This document shows positions 3,634 through 55,651 of a stretch of 64,000 nucleotides of DNA, in pieces; position 1 is the stretch's first letter, and each line of letters opens with the position of its first letter. The translations under genes and the position numbers were made by a program. The notes below the pieces were generated by a model that did not search any database, was not told the origin of the DNA, and worked only from the letters and a program-made list of their open reading frames with translations. The stretch lies in the NCBI RefSeq assembly GCF_045037415.1, contig NZ_CP173440.1; one strand, given 5' to 3'. The stretch comes from Escherichia coli (GTDB lineage Bacteria > Pseudomonadota > Gammaproteobacteria > Enterobacterales > Enterobacteriaceae).

Positions 3634-3945
3634 ATGAAGAAATTAATTGCAGTGGCAGCGGTAGTGGTTGTTTCATTTGCCGCCCAATCCAGCGTTTGCG
3701 GGCCAGTTGCGTGCAAAGTTACTTTCGTCGATGTCGACGGCTCGCAAAAGCCGATCATGCTTCTCGATGACAAAGTTTCAACGCGGAAGAGCTCAATGAA
3801 CCGTGTATTTGATGATGTGTACTCGCACGGCCGTAAGGTCCAGACTGACCTGAAATCAACCACTCCAGCTGCCGGGCATCCTGATAAATCATCACCCGTG
3901 CAAATGAGCAGGGAATTAAGTCCTGTGGTCATCTACAGCGCATAA
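3634..3945 (+). CDS. small secreted protein, unknown function
   Basis: N-terminal signal peptide MKKLIAVAAVVVVSFAAQS; 17-bp gap after the upstream gene. Confidence 0.4.
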   Translation: MKKLIAVAAVVVVSFAAQSSVCGPVACKVTFVDVDGSQKPIMLLDDKVSTRKSSMNRVFDDVYSHGRKVQTDLKSTTPAAGHPDKSSPVQMSRELSPVVIYSA

Positions 3946-32519: not shown

Positions 32520-33020
32520 ATGAATAACAAACTACATTCTGAATTGATTAAGAAAGCTATGTTCCCGGATCTAGGCTGTTCAGAATTTAGGGAACTGACT
32601 GCCCGTAAGGCGATGCGAATTACTCCGATGCGGATGATGGTGTATCACTTCATCAGGTGTGCTGAAGACAAAGGTATCAGTGCATACCAAATCCTTGACC
32701 AGTTAAAATCATATAACCCAAATGCAAAACCAACTACTGTTTATCGTACTCTGGATTATCTACAACAGGCTGGAGTCATTGTAAAAATAGAAAGCTGTAG
32801 CAAGTTTGTAAAAAAGAATAGCTTTCCCCATGAAGGATTAACACTTTTTATGATTTGTTCAAACTGCGGTACAATCATTCAGCATACAGACAGCAAAATA
32901 CAATATTACGTTGAGGATAAATCACATGAATATGGGTATATTATGCAAAGAAAGGACATAGAAATCAGTATAATTTGTCCCGGTTGTCAGGCTAATGAAA
33001 AAATGGCGCAATCTGGGTGA
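32520..33020 (+). CDS. second Fur-family regulator (low-GC, divergent from the hisI-COG0523 operon)
   Basis: Winged-helix region and CSNCG…CPGC structural-zinc-type motifs. Start set at MNNKLH. Confidence 0.6.
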   Translation: MNNKLHSELIKKAMFPDLGCSEFRELTARKAMRITPMRMMVYHFIRCAEDKGISAYQILDQLKSYNPNAKPTTVYRTLDYLQQAGVIVKIESCSKFVKKNSFPHEGLTLFMICSNCGTIIQHTDSKIQYYVEDKSHEYGYIMQRKDIEISIICPGCQANEKMAQSG

Positions 33021-33395
33021 ATTGTGCTCAATAAGCATACGATTAGTAACTTCCCATATTATATGTGAAACAGAAAAAATATTATTACGGTCGATAAAAT
33101 TAAGAATAATATAAATTAGCACTCCCACAAATATTGATTGAAATAATGCTGAATTATTTTCAATAAATAATACAAATAATGCAATTTGAAAAATACCTAC
33201 CTATCATGTTTAGCAAAGCATGACTATTTAGGATCATAAAAACAAAAAAGGAAATTTATAATTTATTTATTTTAACCGTTTTATTTGCACTCCATGTAAA
33301 TGCATGCTTAAATTCCCATGCATTTCCTAAACAATATTACTAATGACCTTTATATACAATAATACAGAAATCCTAAATAACTGATCCTAATACCG

Positions 33396-34390
33396 CTACA
33401 GTTTAGCCAACCCATGTTTTCCACCGGGGAATGGGCTGACGGTATTCATAAAGTGACGAACCTTTTTCAACAGTTTCCACATTGAGTGGCACTGATGATT
33501 TCGGGTTATTGTCTCGTGAAGCGCCTGCCACAACCGTTCGACATGATTGACCCGCGGCGAGTAAACCGGCTGATAAATTACCCTGAACTTCGGGTTTGCT
33601 TTCAGCCAACGCAACGTTTCACGGCTTTTGTGGATGATGTGGTTATCGACAATGAGCGTAATCGTTTTTGCCCGCCGGTATGTCGCCTTCAGATGTTTTA
33701 AGTCTGATAAATAAGGAAGAACCTTTACTGTTTCCACTAACGTAGCTGGCTTTTCCTGTATCGCTGTGCAGCGCACCGGCAAGATAGTACTTTTCATTCT
33801 GGCCCAGCGTGACTACGCGCTTTTGCTGCCCGCGCAGATGCCAGTCAGCACCAATTTTGGGATTGAGGTGAATATCCACTTCATCTTCGTAAAATACGGG
33901 GTTTTCCGCACTGCATTCGCCAGTGCTTCATGGATAGCGACCATTTTTTCTTCTTTGTGTGGGGCACGGATACGCAGTGTCGGCGCTGCTCTCCGCCATA
34001 CCAGTCCGGCAGCAGGTAACCATCGCCGGATGGTTGAAGCATGTAGCGGACAACCGATAACATCACGGACTTTTATCGCCAGCAGTTCGGTGCTCCAGCG
34101 GGAACGCTGATAACTGAAATCGCCGGGAGAATGCTTAACAAGCTCAAGCAGCAATGCGCAAATATGTTCGAACGGCCAGCGCCTCCCACGTCCTGACGGC
34201 AATGATTTCAGGCCTTCAGTACCAGACAGCGTGAACCAGTTAATCTAGCGACCAATCGATGAGCGGGCACAGCAGAGCGTTCTGGCAACATGACTGACGG
34301 TGTCACCATGATGCAGCATCAGCATGGCGGTGAGCCGCCGGGCGAGGTTTTTGTCCTTTGTTTTATTGATATTTTTATCCATCAGGCGTC
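33396..34390 (-). pseudogene. IS630-family transposase, broken into three or more frames
   Basis: ORFs 33396..33797 (DDE C-terminus, …YQPVYSPRVNHVERLW…) and 33813..34202 (N-terminal part), plus an HTH piece near 34250-34390. Confidence 0.55.
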
Positions 34391-34478: not shown

Positions 34479-35460
34479 CTATTTATTGGGCTGAATTTCC
34501 CGGATGCTGCTTAAATCACGGTGACGTGAACTCCAGACGCCGCTTCCGACCGCGGCACCGGTGGATTTTCTGAAGCGCAGGCCGCACTCACTGACCCACT
34601 GGGAACTGGTTTCCCGCAGCCTGACTAAACGGGGTTGGTAGCATTCAGTAACGGTCCCGGTGTGAGTCATCTTCTTCTGCTTTTTCGTTTCATGGACATG
34701 GGTGACCTTATCTGACGAACCATTCACCGCCCGGTCACGGTATTCAGTAGGGATCTCCATAGACAGGCGCAGAGGCAGGGCCCTGCCCTGCCCCGGGACG
34801 GGTAACAGACTGTCCGCCGTGGCTTTCAGCCAGCCATACAGCTTATGACCATTACCCGGAATGCCATCAAGCGTCAGTTTACGCGCGGTGAAGCTCCCGT
34901 CCTGCCTTCGGACCTTCCGCAGGAAGGTACCCAGAGGCTTACCAGACTCAACCGGCTCCGCCACAATCTAGTCATACCCTGGAAACTGATCGAGCATCAG
35001 GTCGATATACTCCCAGTCGAGGACGACAATGACGTGGCCATGAATGTCAGGGCCGTCATTCCACTGTATGGCAATGACATAAGGGAACAGCATGTCGTCG
35101 TGAACTCAGAGATACTGAACTAGGCTCTAGCTGGCCAGTTCACAACTGCCGGCCGGAAATGGCTTCAGCCAGTCACGCCAGAGGGAAGGTACCGGCTCAC
35201 CGGACCGTTCTCCGGCGGCCAGCTCCAGCGCCCGACGGAAGGCCTTCACACGGGCCCAGGTTTCCGCATTCATTTCTTTGCCTTCCCATCAGCACGCGCT
35301 AGGATCAGCAGGCTGAACGCGTCACGAATAACAACTCACTAGATACCATAGCCACCTGACTGCACAGGTAAATCAATGAATTCTGGCGGCCCGGCCAGTA
35401 CCTTTGTCAGATCCAGCGGTAGATGTATGACATTGGTCATTCACCGGCTAGGTTCACAAA
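34479..35460 (-). pseudogene. degraded gene of unknown family with several in-frame TAG stops
   Basis: Consecutive minus-strand coding-like segments are interrupted by stops, several in CTAG context. Confidence 0.3.
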
Positions 35461-35611
35461 GGTGATCTGGTGTGGGAAAGCGGAGCGTTTTACCAGAAAA
35501 TCAAATATAGTTGACAGGCAGGATATTACATATGGTCAACTCATGTGATCTGTATCTTATTATACGAAAAATGGAACTCATCTTAATATGTTGATATAAA
35601 ATCACTTTATA

Positions 35612-36175
35612 TTGAAAACCTCATATTATGGCACACTGCCTGCGGTAGATAGTGCTAACGAAAAGCAGCCACTGATGATTGGCTCCCATATTGACACCGT
35701 TGTAAACGCCGGCGCTTTCGATGGTTGTTACGGTGTCCTGTCCGGCCTGGCTGTCGTCAGGGCTTTCAGAAAAGCCGGGATCAAACCTTCCCGCCCGATT
35801 ACTGTCGGCGCATTCACAAACGAAGAGGGTATCCGTTATCAACCCGATATGATGGGATCGCTCGTCTATGCAGGGGGGATCTCGCTGAAGAAAATCCTGG
35901 ACACTGTCGGCACTGATGGCACACGTCTGGGTGATGAGCTGCAGCGTATTGGCTATGCGGGAAACCTGGAGCCCGGCTCGATCGTCCCTCATGAATACAT
36001 TGAACTGCACATCGAACAGGGACCTGTTCTTGAAGCCGAAGGGATCCAGATCGGTGCTGTCGAAAATCTTCAGGGAATTTCCTGGCAGGAAATCACCATC
36101 AAAGGCACGGCAAACCATGCAGGCACCACGCCGACACGGCTACCCGTTCTTACGATCCGGCAGTCTAGGAAATGC
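35612..36175 (+). pseudogene. fragment of an M20-family amidohydrolase (allantoate/N-carbamoyl-amino-acid amidohydrolase-like)
   Basis: Internal region only (…GSHIDTVVNAGAFDGCYGV…GTANHAGTTP…); N- and C-termini are missing. Confidence 0.5.
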
Positions 36176-45135: not shown

Positions 45136-45328
45136 TGCTGAATGTATTACCACCGCTGAAGTAGTTTGTAGAGGGGCGCTAATGTCATTGGCATTACGTC
45201 CGCTCTTCGTTCACAGCGGACCGTCATGCCAGCTCAAAAAACAGGCTTAACGTAGGATATTTAATGAGATGGTCACTCCCTCCTTCCCGGTACTATGCTG
45301 AGGACAGGCTTTCATTCGGAGAACTATC

Positions 45329-46333
45329 ATGGAAAACATTGCGCTCATTGGTATCGATCTGGGTAAAAACTCTTTCCATATTCATTGCCAGGATCGTCGC
45401 GGGAAGGCTGTTTACCGTAAAAAATTTACCCGGCCAAAGTTGATCGAATTTTTGGCGACATGCCCCGCTACAACCATCGCAATGGAAGCCTGTGGCGGTT
45501 CTCACTTTATGGCACGCAAGTTGGAAGAGTTGGGGCATTCCCCAAAGCTGATATCACCACAATTTGTCCGCCCGTTCGTTAAAAGCAATAAAAACGACTT
45601 TGTCGACGCCGAAGCTATTTGTGAAGCTGCATCGCGTCCGTCTATGCGTTTTGTGCAGCCCAGAACGGAATCTCAGCAGGCAATGCGGGCTCTGCATCGT
45701 GTCCGTGAATCCCTGGTTCAGGATAAGGTAAAAACAACCAATCAAATGCATGCTTTTCTGCTGGAATTTGGCATTAGCGTTCCCCGAGGAGCTGCCGTTA
45801 TTAGCCGACTGAGTACCATTCTTGAGGATAATAGTTTGCCTCTTTACCTCAGCCAGTTATTGCTGAAATTACAACAGCATTATCACTATCTTGTTGAGCA
45901 GATTAAAGATTTGGAATCCCAGTTGAAACGAAAGTTGGACGAAGATGAGGTTGGACAGCGCTTGCTGAGCATTCCCTGCGTCGGAACACTGACAGCGAGT
46001 ACTATTTCAACTGAGATTGGCGACGGGAAGCAGTACGCCAGCAGCCGTGACTTTGCGGCGGCAACAGGGCTTGTACCTCGGCAGTACAGCACGGGAGGTA
46101 GGACGACATTGCTGGGAATTAGTAAGCGAGGTAATAAAAAGATCCGAACTTTGTTGGTTCAATGTGCCAGGGTATTCATACAAAAACTGGAACACCAGTC
46201 TGGCAAATTGGCCGATTGGGTCAGGGATTTACTGTGCCGGAAAAGCAACTTTGTCGTCACTTGTGCTCTGGCAAACAAGCTGGCCAGAATAGCCTGGGCC
46301 CTAACGGCACGACAGCAAACTTATGTAGCATAA
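45329..46333 (+). CDS. IS110-family transposase
   Basis: N-terminal IGIDLGKNSFH (DEDD-type) and C-terminal region typical of IS110 family. Confidence 0.75.
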   Translation: MENIALIGIDLGKNSFHIHCQDRRGKAVYRKKFTRPKLIEFLATCPATTIAMEACGGSHFMARKLEELGHSPKLISPQFVRPFVKSNKNDFVDAEAICEAASRPSMRFVQPRTESQQAMRALHRVRESLVQDKVKTTNQMHAFLLEFGISVPRGAAVISRLSTILEDNSLPLYLSQLLLKLQQHYHYLVEQIKDLESQLKRKLDEDEVGQRLLSIPCVGTLTASTISTEIGDGKQYASSRDFAAATGLVPRQYSTGGRTTLLGISKRGNKKIRTLLVQCARVFIQKLEHQSGKLADWVRDLLCRKSNFVVTCALANKLARIAWALTARQQTYVA

Positions 46334-46728
46334 CGGCAGAAATACACCGGTTTAAAGAATTACTGATCTGGTTTTGCGAATACTGATATTGATGATACTA
46401 ACGGCCCACCGGCCTGTTGAGGAACCTGTAAAACGGAAAGGCTCATTGAAGCCGTATATTTTCTGGAGGTTCATCAGGCGCGGAACTCATCAAGGCGCGG
46501 GAATAAAATCCCATTCAGACGCCGGATAGATTCAAGCAAGCCAACTTGTCGTCAAAATCGGTGTTGCAAAAACGGGAGTGACCATAGATTCCGTTTTCCA
46601 AGCGGACCCCTTACTATAAATTTTAAGCGATCACCTGACCTTCCCTGCTGCGGACTAAGTTCTAAGTGAAGAAATCCTTGTGATCTTTTTATCTACTGTC
46701 AGACGAACCACGATAATGCGTGTCGATG

Positions 46729-46755
46729 AGAAAAAAAAACACCTTATAAAGGTGG
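46729..46755 (-). terminator. rho-independent terminator of the H-NS-like gene
   Basis: Hairpin CACCTT-TATA-AAGGTG followed by T9 on the minus strand. Confidence 0.5.
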
Positions 46756-46779
46756 TTTTATATAGCTACGGAAAATTGT

Positions 46780-47178
46780 TTAGATCAGGAAATCTTCGAG
46801 AGTTTTTCCTGAATCCAACTGAGCTTTAATTGGTGCCGGGGTACGACCCTGACCTGTCCAAGTTTTTTGCTCACCAGCTTCGTCTATATAAGCATATTTC
46901 GCCGGACGAGGTTCACGCTTTTTTCGTACTTTAATGTTAACGGCCGCGTCCATCAGTTCATTCGGATCTATACCATCAGCGATTATCATTTCCCGGTACT
47001 GAGAGAGTTTTTCTAAACGCTCTCGATTAGCTGCTTCGGCCGCCTTTTCTTCTTCACTGCGTTCAGTGACTACAACAGTGAACTTTTCTAATACTTCTTC
47101 GAGCACTTCTAATGGCAGCTCTCGTGCCTGAGCGCGAAGTGTACGGATGTTATTGAGAACCTGTAATGTCTCGCTCAT
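46780..47178 (-). CDS. H-NS-family nucleoid-associated protein
   Basis: [20 protein letters not shown]…[16 protein letters not shown]…TWTGQGRTP matches H-NS/StpA along its length. Confidence 0.85.
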
Positions 47179-47514
47179 AGTTACCTCTTTAAGCACATTG
47201 TTATGCAGTTACATAACAACATTAAATTAATTAAAAATTTTCAGCAAGTGGCTTCGCAAGTTAAATTATTTCAATCGAAAAACATCTTAAAAAGGAATAG
47301 CTCTCATGCTGATTCTATCTTCCTTAGACAGGATACTTCCCAGTTTGTAAATTCACAATCTTGAAAAAAACACCTCAAAAAATCTGTCTCTTTGGTTATG
47401 AATTAATCGTTGAATTCAATGTAAAGAGGTGTTGTAATTGTAAAAGTCACCAGGCAAATAATCAATACAATTTAGTTCGATATAGTGAAGATCTAAATGT
47501 CATTCCTTATGTAT

Positions 47515-47994
47515 TTATTTATTCGCTTTGCGCCATTGACGTGGTTCAATCGAGTTCGGGTCCGACCACAGACCTTTACCTGCATTGCGAGCGTTCTGCT
47601 CAAGAGTCCCATATTCAGGTACAGTTAATCGACCCTGATAGCGATATGCCCAGGCCATGCCTTCTGCAACCATGATGGAATTAATATCCTGGCTTTTAAG
47701 ATAGATTGTACCAAGCATACGTCCATAGGCGTCCTGCCCATGGTCCTGAATATTTACAATCTGGTTTGCGACCAACTGGATCATTGTCTGCTTAGCCTTC
47801 TGCCCGAAGGCTTGCTTACTTTCAGGGGCATCAATTCCATAGAGCCGTATTCTTGTATTTATTGCACCGTCATAAGCCTGTACAGTATCACCATCAATTA
47901 CTCTGACAACTTTTGCCGAGAAAGTTTTGGCAATTGAAGTCAGCGGTGTTGTTAAAAGAAAAACAGCCAGCGGGAAAATGGCTAACTTGGTCAT
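47515..47994 (-). CDS. secreted thermonuclease (staphylococcal-nuclease-like) family protein
   Basis: Signal peptide and SNase-like motifs (VIDGDT…RLYGIDAPE…). Confidence 0.7.
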   Translation of the reverse strand: MTKLAIFPLAVFLLTTPLTSIAKTFSAKVVRVIDGDTVQAYDGAINTRIRLYGIDAPESKQAFGQKAKQTMIQLVANQIVNIQDHGQDAYGRMLGTIYLKSQDINSIMVAEGMAWAYRYQGRLTVPEYGTLEQNARNAGKGLWSDPNSIEPRQWRKANK

Positions 47995-48177
47995 CCGGAT
48001 GTTTATCATTGGTTGTCTCTGGGTGATAATCATAAAATGTGAGTTGAGGGTGAAATCACAACGATTTTGAAAATTTACTTTCAAAGTATTTGTTACTTTA
48101 TTAACTACATGCTATTGTGTCAATGTATATGAAAATTATTGCCAGAGGTGAATGACAACGCATCTCAGCTCAGTAAA

Positions 48178-48186
48178 GGGGGGGGG
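48178..48186. repeat. G9 homopolymer immediately 5' of an ATG
   Basis: GGGGGGGGG directly precedes the ATG at 48187. Confidence 0.9.
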
Positions 48187-49136
48187 ATGTCGACTGTTAA
48201 TGATGTGATTATATCTTTTGGGGATGACAGTAAAAGGTACTCAAGAGACTTCCAGACAAAAGACGAATTTAAAAAGAGCTGGTACGCAGTTTTGTCCCGG
48301 GCGCATGCTTCTGTAGAAGCTAAGGTTAGCTGCTCGTGTAAAGGCAAAGGACAGAAATCACTTTCCGTAAAATATAACTCTGGCGGTGATACTTATTTCT
48401 TGGCACGGTACCCAAATACGGGTAGTCAACATTCTCCCGACTCATGTATTTAATTGTAGGTGCATACCCTTCAACACCTCAGGTGATGAAAAATATAAAA
48501 ATGACATCAGATGCTCTGAAGAAAAAGGAGAGTTTGATTTGTCTCAATGTTCTATCGAAATACAACCCTGAAAAACATTCGAATACATCAAAACGACTTC
48601 CTGTCAAGTTCTTTTCTGGTGTTCTGATCGTGCTGATGAATACTGATAACTGGGCATCACTGGAGAAGAGATTCAGCTCTGAAATAGCAAATTGGCGTTC
48701 AGGAGGCAACGTCATCTGTATTGCTATAGGCGAGCTAGGTAAATTTAAGGGGAATGATATATACTATCTTAAAACACTTCAGATTGCTTTGATGAATGTT
48801 GATGATAACTAGATCCCGGCAGACTCGAGCTATGAACTGACCATGCTAAATTATCTTCATAAGCATGAGCGATCATTTATAAAACCTCTGAGATATGATG
48901 CTTCTAATAATGATGTATTCCCGGATTTCTGCCTGACGGATATAGGGAGTACTGAACTTTTTCCTATTGAGGTATTTGGTATGGATACTGCTTCATATTT
49001 GGCACGTAAGGTGATCAAAGAAAGTTACTATAATGAACGATATGGAAAGGATGGTTGGGCTTCATGGGAAGCACCGGCTGGCCCCCTCCCCATCTGCCCG
49101 ATAAGGCCAGCAGTTAACTACCAAATGCTTCTGTAA
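48187..49136 (+). pseudogene. possible single gene broken by one frameshift and one in-frame stop
   Basis: ORF 48139..48453 is in frame 1; ORFs 48444..48812 and 48843..49136 are both in frame 3, separated by a TAG at 48813. Confidence 0.25.
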
Positions 49137-49673
49137 GGGCTTCGGCCCTATTAAAAATATCAGCCATTTTTTAACACATAGTAATAGAATCCGATTCAAA
49201 GTGATTCTCACATGGTCTCAGAAAGTAACTTTTTTAGGTTAATCTTTGTTATAGAGCTATTAAACCATAACTTCTGAAAATATCTTTTATTCTTATCTTT
49301 CAGTTATCATAATGACTTTTTAGATTAAGCCCCTAGTTTGAATGTGTTTGTTTGAAAAAATATTTTATAAAACATATTATGGTTAATTATTTGGTTGATG
49401 TTTTATTTCAAACATATCTACTTTACTCCTGCATGGATAGGTCTGCACATCTTGCCGCAAGATCATAAAATAAAAGTACAATTATGCGTTCTATTGAAAA
49501 CAGGACCTGATATCATGGACGATTCCACTCCCCTGCTCGTTCCCCCAACCAAAAGATAAAAGTAACTTTTGAGGCTTAAAGGGTTTCATCCCTGATGTTC
49601 TTCATCCAGCGATTTTAATACTGCCCCATTAACCGGACAGAAATCATCCGAATATTTTCTTTTACATTGCCGC

Positions 49674-49732
49674 GCGCTACGTGAAATCTGACGTACTCAC
49701 CCCTCCGATTTTCTTCAGATTTCGCGTAGCGC
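49674..49732. repeat. 18-bp inverted repeat (one mismatch) with 23-nt spacer in an AT-rich non-coding region
   Basis: GCGCTACGTGAAATCTGA … TCAGATTTCGCGTAGCGC. Confidence 0.8.
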
Positions 49733-50521
49733 AACCTGGGCGGAAACCACTCGAAAAGTAACTTTTGGACAGATTTAGAAGCCGGTTACCCCCACTATTG
49801 TTATTAACATAATATTAACACAAGGAATAATCGTTATTATTCGAACTGTAACTAGGATGTTGCATACCTCTTGAAGCGATGAAAATATGAGCATATTTCT
49901 CATTATTCCTGAATCCATACATTTTTATTGTTTTTATAGCGACATATTGAAACTCTGTTTTATTTAATAAGTATCAATTTTATAATCAATTTCTGTTATT
50001 TTATCGCTATTGACATTTACTATTGTGACTATATCCAATGATATTAGATCACTTACATCTGAAAGTGACAGTGTCACGGATTGTGCACCCAGAGAGACCC
50101 TTTTCGTGAAAAAAGTAGTTCACTCCCATAACGAAACGTGGGCTTCTTTTTTGCAGATCGTATGTGGATGTCTTCAGGTAGCAGGAAGGAAAGTGATGCA
50201 GGCATGAAAGGATGACAAACCGGCAAAGGGGCTGCTACTGCTCCATATTCAACAAACCACCCCTGGTTAGTTGAATCCTTTGCCGGTTTTCCTGACAATA
50301 CCAGACAGGTAAACTTTTTCCATCAGATTTTCTCGTCAACATGTTGCATTCATAGTTTTTCCATAATTGGATGCTTTTGCAGGACAACTACGGTTTTTAT
50401 CCTTTCGTGCCCGGTAAAAAAAATAGTTAAATAGCGATTTCACCCTTTTAAAGGAAAAATTGTCCTCAGGCTCACAGTACTATAAAAGTATCAATAATCA
50501 GGAGCCGGTAATGACTCCAAC

Positions 50522-51025
50522 TTATTGATAGTGTTTTATGTTCAGATAATGCCCGATGACTTTGTCATGCAGCTCCACCGATTTTGAGAACGACAGCGAC
50601 TTCCGTCCCAGCCGTGCCAGGTGCTGCCTCAGATTCAGGTTAAGCCGCTCAATTCGCTGCGTATATCGCTTGCTGATTACGTGCAGCTTTCCCTTCAGGC
50701 GGGATTCATACAGCGGCCAGCCATCCGTCATCCATATCACCACGTCAAAGGGTGACAGCAGGCTCATAAGACGCCCCAGCGTCGCCATAGTGCGTTCACC
50801 GAATACGTGCGCAACAACCGTCTTCCGGAGCCTGTCATACGCGTAAAACAGCCAGCGCTGGCGCGATTTAGCCCCGACATAGCCCCACTGTTCGTCCATT
50901 TCCGCGCAGACGATGACGTCACTGCCCGGCTGTATGCGCGAGGTTACCGACTGCGGCCTGAGTTTTTTAAGTGACGTAAAATCGTGTTGAGGCCAACGCC
51001 CATAATGCGGGCGGTTGCCCGACAT
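50522..51025 (-). CDS. insB: IS1 InsB
   Basis: 167-aa product matches IS1 InsB. Confidence 0.9.
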
Positions 51026-51219
51026 CCAACGCCATTCATGGCCATATCAATGATTTTCTGGTGCGTACCGGGCTGAGAAGCGGTGTAAGTGAACTGCAGT
51101 TGCCATGTTTTACGGCAGTGAGAGCAGAGATAGCGCTGATGTCCGGCAGTGCTTTTGCCGTTACGCACCACCCCGTCAGTAGCTGAACAGGAGGGACAGC
51201 TGATAGAAACAGAAGCCAC
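50944..51219 (-). CDS. insA: IS1 InsA
   Basis: 91-aa product matches IS1 InsA (…[32 protein letters not shown]…). Confidence 0.9.
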
Positions 51220-51252
51220 TGGAGCACCTCAAAAACACCATCATACACTAAA

Positions 51253-51843
51253 TCAGTAAGTTGGCAGCATCACCAACCTTATGTACCTTTTGCAGCCAAA
51301 TTTTCTTGTTATTTTGCTTTGGTAGCATGATAGCATTTTTTCTTCAATTTTTAGTTGACTTTTTATTTCATTAATGCCCCCATTTTTCAGTAGGCATTGC
51401 AGCACTGCTTGTTCCTTTTTTGTTAGCCGTGGATAATGGTTTACAATTCGGCTAACATTTTTCTTTAAGAATGCAAAATATAGTTTTTCAATATTATTTT
51501 TTACATTTCCTTGCATGTTAACATAGATGTCATAATCACACCCTTTAGGATAAAACCGCCCCCCCCCCGAAACGTCAAGCCACATCCATTGGCTTATCAT
51601 ATTTAATGATCCCCTTAACATTTTGTACCCTCCCCATTTCCCTGAATAAAAAATCCTGCTGTCAACCAATACTCTTATGTTTCTTTTGTGCTTAATTGCT
51701 ATTGATTTATTAACTACTCCTTCATATGTAATATGAAACAGAGGTAGTCCAGTTAACTGCTTTAGGCCATAATAAAAAAAATAATCATCAGTCAACACTA
51801 TGTTTACATCCTTGTTACATATAAAGTAAATATATTTTTCCAT
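51253..51843 (-). CDS. LuxR-type HTH regulator, 3' end fused to the IS1 terminus, with internal G10 tract
   Basis: C-terminal LuxR-like HTH (LTKKEQAVLQCLLKNG…KITRKFG). The last ~7 codons come from IS1. The C10 run at 51559-51568 encodes GGG within the ORF. Confidence 0.45.
   Translation of the reverse strand: MEKYIYFICNKDVNIVLTDDYFFYYGLKQLTGLPLFHITYEGVVNKSIAIKHKRNIRVLVDSRIFYSGKWGGYKMLRGSLNMISQWMWLDVSGGGRFYPKGCDYDIYVNMQGNVKNNIEKLYFAFLKKNVSRIVNHYPRLTKKEQAVLQCLLKNGGINEIKSQLKIEEKMLSCYQSKITRKFGCKRYIRLVMLPTY
51559..51568. repeat. C10 homopolymer (G10 on the coding strand) inside the LuxR-type ORF
   Basis: Ten consecutive C at 51559-51568. Confidence 0.9.
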
Positions 51844-52376
51844 AGAAACAGTAACTTTGATCCATCAATATTCATCCAAAAATATTTTATAAGCATTAAA
51901 AAAAAAAACAACAGAGAATCATTTCTCTTGAAAGTCGTTGGTTACAATTTTTAATGAATAAAAATTCAATCAATCACGGTAAATAGTCATTTTTTTTGTC
52001 TTTGCGTGTTTGCAATTAATTGATCTTTTTTTTTAACCCGCCCCCCTTTATTTTGTCAGTTTGCTTAATAATTCACGATTAAAGATGTGTGGGGAGGGGC
52101 GAGTTTAGGACTTATTTTAAAATCCTTATCAAATAAATACTTTCGCAAAAAACAATTCGCTTAGTAATACTGTCTGTTTCTATAATAACCATGGTAATTA
52201 GATTTCTGAAAAATATGTTCAGATTACCACTAGTGTAACAGTTGGTGCTTGGGAGTTATTTGGCGATTGATCCGACCACATGATCCAGGCTAAATACCCT
52301 CAAAGTAAATTAATATATTGTTCTCCTTGATATCCGGCCCATTTTTTGATTTAATTTCAAATGATAACTGTATAAG

Positions 52377-53039
52377 GTGCAATCAATGAGTAATACTGAT
52401 AACGGGACGAAGATCTACACTCCATTAACTCTGAAACTATATGACTGGTGGGTGCTTTGCATTTCGAATAGTTACGCATGGAATTGTTCAACAAAGGATA
52501 TTTTAATTCCTTATTTTTTACAAAACTTAAGTCCTAACCACCTAGATATTGGCGTTGGTACTGGTTATTATCTCACTAAAATCCCTGCTCACTATAATAT
52601 ATCCCTCATGGATCTTAACCCTGCCAGCTTGAAAGCTGCATCGGCAAGAGTAGGGGAAGATAGAATACACTATAAAGTTAGGCATGATGTATTTGAATCT
52701 TACCCAGAGGAACTTCATGGAAAATTTGATTCCATATCAATGTATTACCTCATCCATTGTCTACCAGGAACAATGGAAGATAAAAGAATTGTCATAAAAA
52801 ACGCGAAGGCCGCCTTAACTAAAGGTGGAATACTTTACGGAGCAACCATACTTGGTGATAAGGTAAGGCATAATAGTTTTGCGTTAAAACTGTTGCAAAT
52901 TTATAACAAAAAAGGTATTTTTTCTAATTTTAGTGATTCAGAAGAAGAACTAAAAAAAATGCTTTCTCATTATTTTAAAAATATTGATGTCATTGTGAAA
53001 GGTGCTGTCGCAATGTTCTCTGCGCATGGAAAAAAATAG
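52377..53039 (+). CDS. class I SAM-dependent methyltransferase
   Basis: DIGVGTGYY (motif I). Paralog of the ORF at 61472..62179. Confidence 0.55.
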   Translation: MQSMSNTDNGTKIYTPLTLKLYDWWVLCISNSYAWNCSTKDILIPYFLQNLSPNHLDIGVGTGYYLTKIPAHYNISLMDLNPASLKAASARVGEDRIHYKVRHDVFESYPEELHGKFDSISMYYLIHCLPGTMEDKRIVIKNAKAALTKGGILYGATILGDKVRHNSFALKLLQIYNKKGIFSNFSDSEEELKKMLSHYFKNIDVIVKGAVAMFSAHGKK

Positions 53040-54221: not shown

Positions 54222-55651
54222 CTATTTAATAATTTCTGACAGGGCCTGACCTGCTTTCTGAATATAAACTGGTTGCGAGACCTCACCCAGCTGATTGGCA
54301 ACCATCCGGGTTTCATAATGACTGGCAGTTAATACCAGAGCTGGCCCGTGAATACAGGACAGTTGTTCAACTACTGCCTTTAACCATTGACCTGAAAATA
54401 TCTGTTCTTTCGGGTCATCGAACACCTTTGGAAAATCAGCACCGGCGATGGTCAGCTTCATTGAGCCATAGACGTCTGGGGAGAATATTTTCCTGATTGA
54501 AATCGTATCGCTGGTTAACCCCAGAGCTTTACATAACCACTCCATTCCGGTCTCTGGGGTACTGGTAATAGAGAGGGTAGCCGACGTCAGTAACGCACTA
54601 CGCCACTGAGTGCAGTATCTGCCCACATTCATCCCGATAAACGGGTTTACAGCGATCAGGGCTGGTTCACGACGTTTATTGGAAACGCCTACGCCCTTTT
54701 GCCCCCGGACAATCCGAGCATATCCCTGCTGTAGATACAGTCAAAGAAAGCTTTCCGGGCCGCTTCATTTTTTATTTTCCGCCCTACCTTTGATAAGGCG
54801 TTAAAGCTATTGTCAAACAAGGCAACCGCTGCAGGCGTACTACAAAAATGCAGATCGCCCGCTATCGAAGTCACGTCGTTCATTAACTGGTCGATGACAT
54901 GCACGCCATTACGTGGAATATGTTCATTGAACGCACTAGTCAACTCTCTGAGGTTGAAGCGCCGCTGTTTCCAGACCTCAAGCATATCTACAAAAATGTC
55001 TGCCTCATCAATAATGAGGTACATATTTTCTTTGTCACCGAGGATGCGGTGATTACACATACAGTCGACCATTACCATCGCATGGGTCGTAACAATAAAG
55101 TTAGCACTGAGAGCATTCAGGCGAATATCATCAATGTCCTGTATATCATCCCAGATGGAGTAGGTGACCATCTCTGGCGTGATCTGCGCTGGCAGTTCAC
55201 CATACTCTTCTTCAAACTCAACCAGAGGTTTTGACCAGTTAGCGAGTTTTTCAAGGACCTTAACCGTATCCAGATCGGTAAATTCGTCCATGAGTAACAG
55301 TCCACGTACTTTCTCCAGGGATACGTAATTTACTTTCCCCATAAGCCGGGAAAAAGTAACTTTTATGCCGCATTGTTCAGCTATCTGTTCAAGGAGAGGA
55401 CGATCGCTTCTGAATATCTGGTGCATCAGTGCATGAGAATTCGTGGCAATCACAAATTTTGCCTCAGGGTTTTTCAGCAGAATCAGAAGCGCCGGTACCA
55501 GATAGCCCAGCGTTTTTCCTACACCTGTTTCAGCACTAATCAGTGCAACTTTATGATCCTGAGTCAGTGCACCAGCTGCAGCCTCGATATAATCCTGTTG
55601 GACCTTACGTAACGACAATCCGGCAGACTCAAATACCGCTGATGTATTCAT
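54222..55651 (-). pseudogene. DinG/Rad3-like SF2 helicase, frameshifted and C-terminally truncated
   Basis: Walker A ETGVGKT and LIIDEAD in ORF 54689..55684; LLTSATLS in ORF 54222..54632 in a different frame. The gene ends against IS-derived DNA. Confidence 0.5.

Follow-up and report, generated by a model that had tools for sequence, protein, structure and literature searches.

What is the function of the AT-rich, non-coding block at positions 49140-50010 of a 64,000-nucleotide stretch of DNA from Escherichia coli (contig NZ_CP173440.1, assembly GCF_045037415.1; this whole stretch is referred to as the window)? A first-pass annotation had described three copies of a palindrome and a long inverted repeat in this block of 0.9 kb and had proposed an origin of transfer (oriT), a replication or partition site or a structured regulatory RNA, any of which would fit an island origin. 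Its general idea of functional cis-acting non-coding DNA with protein-binding-type palindromes held up, while none of the specific options (oriT, replication or partition, RNA, island) did. With a probability of roughly 0.6 the block makes up most of a 1.37-kb region of an ordinary type that controls transcription, belongs to the backbone of IncHI1B/IncFIB(K) plasmids and was orphaned by the insertion sequence IS1. This reading draws on the position of the region, its homology, motif statistics, conservation across lineages and the missing hallmarks of an oriT, a replication origin or a partition site; the protein binding, promoter activity and repression that it includes are predicted.

A comparison of the whole window identified it as a Klebsiella pneumoniae virulence plasmid of the pK2044/pLVPK type. 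The block is 100% identical to positions 32885-33755 of pK2044 (NC_006625.1), minus strand. Identical copies were present in about 470 other Klebsiella plasmids and also in E. coli transconjugants with such plasmids; all were on plasmids and never on chromosomes. According to the annotation of pK2044, H-NS and a thermonuclease are followed by a split DUF1173 gene, then by the block, which is unannotated, and finally by IS1. Homologues of the block with 80-92% identity were found in conjugative IncHI1B/IncFIB plasmids of the MOBH/MPF_F type. An island origin was not borne out, as the block is part of the backbone common to these plasmids. Four conjugative MOBH/MPF_F relatives place the region between the DUF1173 gene and a gene for a 200-amino-acid protein, which is followed by a PsiA gene (PF06952). 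The gene order in the relatives is hns, pld, nuc, intact DUF1173, the non-coding region, the 200-amino-acid gene and psiA, followed by two unknown genes and a HAD hydrolase gene, and everything from DUF1173 onward is co-directional. In these relatives the 200-amino-acid product is a membrane-type protein, and psiA encodes a plasmid SOS-inhibition protein.

Alignment with the relatives L003 and L012 located the end of IS1 about 5 bp upstream of the ATG with which the 200-amino-acid gene starts. Because IS1 begins so close to the start codon of the operon, the region is orphaned and the genes which it preceded are lost from this position. The Shine-Dalgarno sequence of the lost gene was recognised in the alignment (CAGGAGCCTTACTATGACT). 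The region is therefore a relic, which is carried clonally in a non-conjugative virulence plasmid. The following features were assigned in the region, at its borders and, for the palindrome, elsewhere in the window.

48139-49136, plus strand: DUF1173 pseudogene in three open reading frame (ORF) fragments; intact, with 423 amino acids, in the conjugative relatives.
49137-50506, no strand: the whole non-coding region of 1.37 kb, bounded by the DUF1173 pseudogene stop and the end of IS1.
49221-49233, no strand: palindrome copy 1, GAAAGTAACTTTT; its orthologue in L012 lies about 190 bp upstream of a 161-amino-acid gene.
49558-49570, no strand: palindrome copy 2, AAAAGTAACTTTT; present in L011 and L012, lacking in L003, where 49171-49564 is missing.
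49674-49732, no strand: inverted repeat IR1, a 59-bp dyad with 18-bp arms GCGCTACGTGAAATCTGA and TCAGATTTCGCGTAGCGC and a 23-nt spacer.
49754-49766, no strand: palindrome copy 3, AAAAGTAACTTTT, 22 bp to the right of IR1.
49804-49831, plus strand: putative sigma-70-like promoter TTAACA-16 nt-AATAAT with 10 of 12 consensus matches, directed towards the lost operon.
49825-49842, no strand: operator-like dyad GAATAAT-CGTT-ATTATTC (7-4-7), which overlaps the -10 hexamer.
50213-50291, plus strand: nested hairpin of 79 nt, named island B, with outer arms AAACCGGCAAAGG and CCTTTGCCGGTTT.
50500-50504, plus strand: Shine-Dalgarno sequence AGGAG of the 200-amino-acid gene, kept; its ATG was displaced by IS1.
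50507-51274, minus strand: IS1, which separates the control region from the former operon.
2130-2142 and 2769-2781, no strand: two exact palindrome copies flanking a lytic-transglycosylase gene in a transfer-region remnant.
1443-1455 and 55352-55364, no strand: other palindrome copies, with a weaker one at 3714-3726.

The AT-richness of the block was confirmed by a G+C content of 33.6%, compared with 36.3% for the full intergenic region and 47.4% for the window. It was also correct that the block holds no convincing ORF; the longest one has 54 amino acids within 49140-50010 and 65 amino acids in the full region. The 65-amino-acid ORF (50010-50207), which lies just outside the block and ends 6 nt before the hairpin, was considered as a hidden small gene and rejected; of the five close relatives retaining it, four have a frameshifted or truncated version, and the two distant relatives have no counterpart. 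The right boundary at 50010 proved arbitrary, since the non-coding DNA extends to 50506 and contains a second structured element at 50213-50291. The region is a mosaic: besides the segment missing from L003, the relative L012 has an extra 1.2 kb, including the 161-amino-acid gene, between window positions 49273 and 49332, and this gene is lacking in the window. L011 and L013, the relatives with the lowest identity (about 75-80%), could be aligned over two islands only. Island A (49671-49849) comprises the inverted repeat with its spacer, palindrome copy 3, the promoter-like site and the dyad over the -10 hexamer, and island B aligned over 50199-50291.

The palindrome was defined as (A/G)AAAGTAACTTTT, i.e. 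(A/G)AAAGTWACTTT(T/C), with the core AAAGTWACTTT. All three copies noted in the first-pass annotation were found again, copy 1 with one mismatch at the outermost base. Copy 3 was kept in all eight aligned relatives, in one of them with a single mismatch. When one mismatch to AAAGTAACTTTT was allowed, the window gave 15 strand-matches, while 0.53 were expected and none of 100 shuffled sequences reached 15. The core occurred 12 times in pK2044 (0.12 expected) and 78 times in NZ_CP137411.1 (0.27 expected), the latter count covering the first 200,000 bp of this conjugative IncHI1B/IncFIB plasmid of 200,428 bp. In NZ_CP137411.1, 47 of the 78 sites were intergenic, as against 22% non-coding DNA (p = 3.6e-13), and 7 more were within 20 bp of the end of a coding sequence (CDS); the density was 1.07 per kb in intergenic and 0.20 per kb in coding DNA. 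Clusters were seen there upstream of both mobI and the traL-E-K-B pilus operon, downstream of repB of IncHI1B, around the lytic transglycosylase gene and in the homologue of the block. All 12 palindromes of pK2044 were located in segments derived from the backbone; the iuc, iro, rmp, sil, pco and fec cargo had none.

Orthologous palindrome sites persisted while their flanks diverged. A repeated mobile element was considered as an explanation for the dispersed copies and rejected. Because paralogous sites share no flanking sequence, the palindrome is of the binding-site type rather than a repeated element. It showed the features of an operator network, namely a short palindrome with many backbone copies, intergenic enrichment and unrelated flanks, and is probably the binding site of a plasmid-encoded protein. 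From the distribution of the sites we infer an abundant, dimeric, plasmid-encoded protein that would mark most of the intergenic regions of the backbone, and the behaviour of such a binder would be closer to that of KorB or a nucleoid-associated protein than to that of a simple local repressor. The IncP plasmid RK2 has twelve palindromic KorB operators of 13 bp. As in the KorA/KorB networks, a short and perfect 13-bp palindrome is dispersed over the backbone with intergenic enrichment, some sites being promoter-proximal and others distal or intragenic, and sites lie before genes for transfer, establishment and maintenance. The palindrome differs from the KorB operator in sequence (AAAAGTWACTTTT instead of TTTAGCSGCTAAA) and in its far higher number of sites, 78 per 200 kb. 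A regulator of the KorA/KorB type for IncHI1B/IncFIB(K) plasmids with MOBH was not described in the literature searched. Of the known consensus sites of host factors (LexA, CRP, Fis, IHF, ArgR, Tus/Ter, sigma-32 and sigma-E), none fitted convincingly, and this comparison is to be taken as a lead only.

The inverted repeat of 18 bp with a spacer of 23 nt was verified, with arms at 49674-49691 and 49715-49732 that are 94% complementary. Folded as single-stranded DNA (ssDNA), IR1 reached -18.4 kcal/mol (z = -6.2 compared with shuffled sequences). A sensitive search with island A matched P1-like phage-plasmids and a Pantoea plasmid, in each case with the repeat portion only. These matches belong to a family of dyads with the arms CGCTACGNNAANTCTG and CAGANTTNNNGTAGCG and a spacer of 25-26 nt, which positions 49675-49731 of the window fit. 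A pattern scan detected the family at 58 loci in representative genomes and in 107 viral contigs. Among the genomes were those of Pantoea, Erwinia, Rahnella, Citrobacter, Buttiauxella, Kluyvera, Serratia, Alteromonas and Acinetobacter, and the viral contigs were mostly P1-like. A spacer of 25-26 nt consistently separated the 16-bp consensus arms. A Cre homologue was encoded within 2.5 kb in 33 of 67 distinct contexts; in 31 of these 33 it reads away from the dyad, at a median distance of 35 bp. Most of the cre-linked loci had a lox-like site (arms of the ACTTCGTATAA type) 56-140 bp away on the opposite side.

The variable arm positions of the family did not covary, one position pairing in 22 of 82 cases compared with 37 under independence, and the orientation of the spacer was inverted between orthologous loci. 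For IR1 itself no covariation above shuffled controls was detected, with one compensatory change in the arms (terminal pair, in L005). Since the arms do not covary and the spacer flips, IR1 is regarded as a sequence-specific dyad of Cre-lox modules and not as a selected RNA hairpin. In phage P1 (NC_005856) it aligns with nt 116-174, between loxP and cra-cre. The arm consensus CGCTACG(Y)(R)AAATCTG is common to both, the spacer length is similar (23 nt with 18-bp arms; 25 nt with 16-bp cores), and the right arm of the window corresponds to the cre-proximal arm of P1. In P1, the -10 hexamer (TAAAAT) of the annotated promoter P3cre falls within the distal arm, and Dam sites are situated at its -35. 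In P1 and about 25 loci of Pantoea, Erwinia and others the dyad lies 56-140 bp from lox and 35 bp from cre or cra-cre, an arrangement which the window lacks; in the window and in its relatives IR1 had no cre or cra homologue and no lox-shaped dyad next to it. The IncHI1B plasmids have a single copy of IR1 and encode, about 35 kb away, a homologue of Cre that is 29% identical to the P1 protein (E = 3e-28). IR1 is evidently under constraint within the plasmid family, where it may have been co-opted or may be a relic.

This Cre homologue is encoded next to hha, and a perfect LexA box, TACTGGTTATAAAAACAGTA (NZ_CP137411.1 98100-98165), precedes its gene, which suggests SOS control. In P1, too, a LexA site is annotated between loxP and cre.

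Both the palindrome and IR1 appear to be undescribed, as neither was found in the literature searched by motif strings and by topic. The wider proposal that a plasmid-encoded protein binds AAAAGTWACTTTT at about 80 sites (one per 2.6 kb), and that IR1 at the same time is an unrecognised regulatory component of Cre-lox systems including that of P1, is tentative and is given slightly less than an even chance. The protein would then coordinate or silence the genes for transfer, establishment and maintenance in the manner of KorB or Noc, and IR1 would have been co-opted or left behind in these plasmids; this part of the proposal carries the same tentative rating.

To the right of palindrome copy 3, the core bases of the promoter-like site were invariant in eight relatives. 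The arms of the 7-4-7 dyad were conserved (invariant GGAATAA ... TTATTC), and its spacer varied among the relatives. Island B has an inner core ATTCAACAAACCA-CCCC-TGGTTAGTTGAAT, and the hairpin as a whole is followed by TTTT on the plus strand. It was nearly invariant in eight sequences, even in relatives that are about 75% identical overall, and its fold was far more stable than those of shuffled sequences (z = -8.7). No covariation above shuffled controls was detected in island B, which is conserved as sequence. The stem CCGGCAAAGG/CCTTTGCCGG and the TTTT are conserved; 53 nt are enclosed by the 10-bp stems, or 47 nt by the 13-bp arms. A terminator scan, which covered loops of 3-8 nt only, did not call island B. 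On the plus strand the hairpin resembles a terminator or attenuator. Another terminator-like site was found at 50125-50142, followed by CTTCTTTTTT.

In the favoured explanation these parts would form a control region upstream of a co-directional, establishment-type operon with psiA and the gene for the 200-amino-acid membrane-type protein. One to four 13-bp palindromes would be the sites of a plasmid-wide binder. The 59-bp IR1 dyad, whose family is usually found between lox and cre, would be the second element, and the sigma-70-like promoter with the overlapping 7-4-7 dyad as operator, directed towards the operon, the third. The conserved 79-nt hairpin would be situated in the presumed leader and act as a terminator or attenuator. 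In established cells the plasmid-wide binder and a local repressor would silence the operon, and entry of the plasmid into a cell without binder and repressor would result in a burst of expression.

Several points weigh against this explanation. A scan found four promoter-like sites in the region, compared with 6.3 in shuffled sequences, and the promoter-like site, a match to the consensus, is about 670 nt away from the ATG of the operon. The approximately 470 identical copies in virulence plasmids are the result of clonal descent and not of selection. Of the palindrome sites, 49% were within 150 bp of a start codon, compared with 40% of random intergenic positions. As a promoter-proximal operator the palindrome was therefore rejected, its distance to the starts being not clearly different from random; and because the sites are no nearer to starts than random intergenic positions, a simple promoter-proximal repressor is not the full explanation. 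No candidate for the binder was obtained, as NCBIfam searches with ten neighbouring or cluster-adjacent proteins and the precomputed Pfam assignments yielded nothing.

Among the other explanations, an oriT or an auxiliary relaxosome site could be proposed because inverted repeats and AT-rich DNA generally resemble oriT regions and because three copies of the palindrome are present upstream of mobI in a conjugative relative. A mobilising oriT fragment of pK2044 has, however, been demonstrated experimentally (PMC9359173). The oriT-F/R primers of that study map to pK2044 188092-188401, which is 155 kb away from the block and not in the window, and a BLAST comparison of the block with this fragment gave chance matches of 9-12 nucleotides only. 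F-type and MOBQ/P-type nic cores, the motif types looked for, were absent from the block. No relaxosome gene is adjacent to the block, its neighbours being the DUF1173 pseudogene and IS1; in a conjugative relative the genes for mobI and the MOBH relaxase are 27 kb away, and the dispersed palindrome was the sole similarity between the block and the mobI-upstream region. The IncF-like oriT of pK2044 and the mobI-adjacent oriTs of MOBH systems (IncA/C and SXT type) share with the block AT-richness, inverted repeats and repeated protein-binding sites, but they differ in location, and the block has none of the nic motifs looked for and no adjacent relaxosome gene. An oriT function is thus considered highly improbable. 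A replication or partition site was not borne out either. The comparison with iterons revealed weak direct repeats in two or three copies and no iterons, no DnaA box was present at up to one mismatch, and no rep or par gene adjoins the block. In pK2044 the rep genes are about 95 kb or more from the block, and the par and sop genes are at 117-132 kb; near parAB of the conjugative relative there is only a single palindrome copy, about 475 bp downstream. A non-coding RNA of about 300-450 nt, starting at the promoter-like site (49804-49831) and ending at the hairpins at 50125-50150 or 50213-50293, would act as a regulatory RNA or a long attenuating leader. The promoter-like site itself, the canonical terminator-like site at 50125-50142 with CTTCTTTTTT, the CCGGTTTTCC at the plus-strand end of island B and the absence of a conserved ORF between promoter-like site and hairpins are in agreement with such a transcript. 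Nevertheless, it is unlikely, as the 350 nt between islands A and B could not be aligned with the distant relatives, neither hairpin showed the covariation of an RNA structure, and no Rfam family matched; cmscan of 46000-53000 on both strands at E<=1 reported a chance snoRNA outside the block as its sole match. The structured RNA of the first-pass annotation was thus not supported.

Two further explanations concern the hairpins. IR1 and island B could be the remnant of a site-specific recombination module for multimer resolution, or a working one, in which the 13-4-13 core of island B would be the lox- or rox-like site and IR1 its companion. This idea is supported by P1 and about 25 loci in which lox is followed after 56-140 bp by a member of the IR1 family and after another 35-36 bp by cre, as well as by the Cre homologue encoded by IncHI1B plasmids, and ATTCAACAAACCA-CCCC-TGGTTAGTTGAAT is the only lox/rox-shaped dyad of the region and nearly invariant. 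However, the Cre homologue of the relative is about 35 kb away and has no IR1 beside it, island B and IR1 are 515 bp apart instead of 56-140 bp, and the asymmetry of the arms puts island B on that side of IR1 which faces the gene, lox sites being distal. Island B also has no similarity to lox arms of the ACTTCGTATA type, and no recombination junction was seen at island B, so that the module is improbable. Alternatively, the hairpins could act in ssDNA during conjugation, where they would serve as a single-strand promoter of the Frpo/ssi kind or as a priming signal, so that psiA and the adjacent genes are expressed early. ssDNA promoters upstream of leading-region-type genes have been reported for many plasmids (PMC11541004), which was counted in favour of this possibility. 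The region is upstream of psiA, a typical leading-region gene, and both hairpins fold better than shuffled sequences as ssDNA of either strand (z -4.8 to -8.7). Sequence similarity, the criterion of PMC11541004, was examined here by blastn (word size 7, E<=1) against the window and L001-L019, and none of five representative elements, i.e. four of the five known ones (ColIb-P9 Frpo3 was omitted) and one published candidate, matched in the region. Like the Frpo/ssi elements of F and ColIb-P9, the region is non-coding, forms hairpins and precedes psiA-type establishment genes, but its sequence is unrelated, and its hairpins are AT-rich and much shorter than the known G+C-rich Frpo hairpins of about 330 nt, which carry the -35 and -10 hexamers in the stem. 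The 18-bp stem of IR1 is too short for both hexamers, both are missing from the conserved part of island B, and the outer stem at 50201-50411, which would extend it to a structure of 210 nt, is not conserved in the relatives. Nor does the region have a fitting orientation with respect to the predicted oriT: the predicted MOBH oriT is 27 kb away, and transcription of psiA from the incoming strand would presumably require that psiA be the last part to enter. A function in ssDNA was therefore rated very doubtful.

Some further observations were made on pK2044 and its relatives. The oriT fragment of pK2044 (188092-188401) lies within the annotated CDS of a Tn3-family transposase (187416-190373). 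In NZ_CP137411.1 the mobI-upstream region (35106-35704), the expected MOBH oriT, contains the three palindrome copies mentioned above and four direct repeats AAAAG-NNN-C-N-AATGA, each of which shares the half-site of the palindrome. A 28-bp fusion site of the rfsF-like type (PMC8299605) was looked for and was absent from the window. The window and pK2044 differ by two events. IS5075 (IS110 family) is inserted at 45263-46588 between the genes for an aldo/keto reductase and an H-NS-family protein, and is lacking in pK2044. A 20.3-kb deletion flanked by IS1, on the far side of the IS1 of the window, corresponds to pK2044 11270-31613 and removes, among other genes, rmpD, rmpC, peg-344, iroBCDN, fecIRA and a RES-Xre toxin-antitoxin pair. 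This deletion truncates rmpA, which flanks IS1 on its far side (IS1 and rmpA within window 50507-51843), at its 3' end; the shortened gene encodes 196 amino acids with the new C-terminus LVMLPTY.

For the virulence plasmid of the window the block itself is of little consequence, and the region should not be annotated as an oriT. The IncHI1B/IncFIB(K) relatives spread carbapenemase genes (NDM/OXA) and form hybrids with virulence plasmids, and the family carries hypervirulence in Klebsiella. The association of IR1 with Cre-family genes across Enterobacterales, Alteromonas and P1 suggests an additional element in the natural regulation of Cre-lox systems, which was not described in the literature searched. 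If one protein indeed reads the approximately 80 palindrome sites, it would be a candidate master switch for the transfer and establishment of these plasmids and a possible target for blocking their spread.

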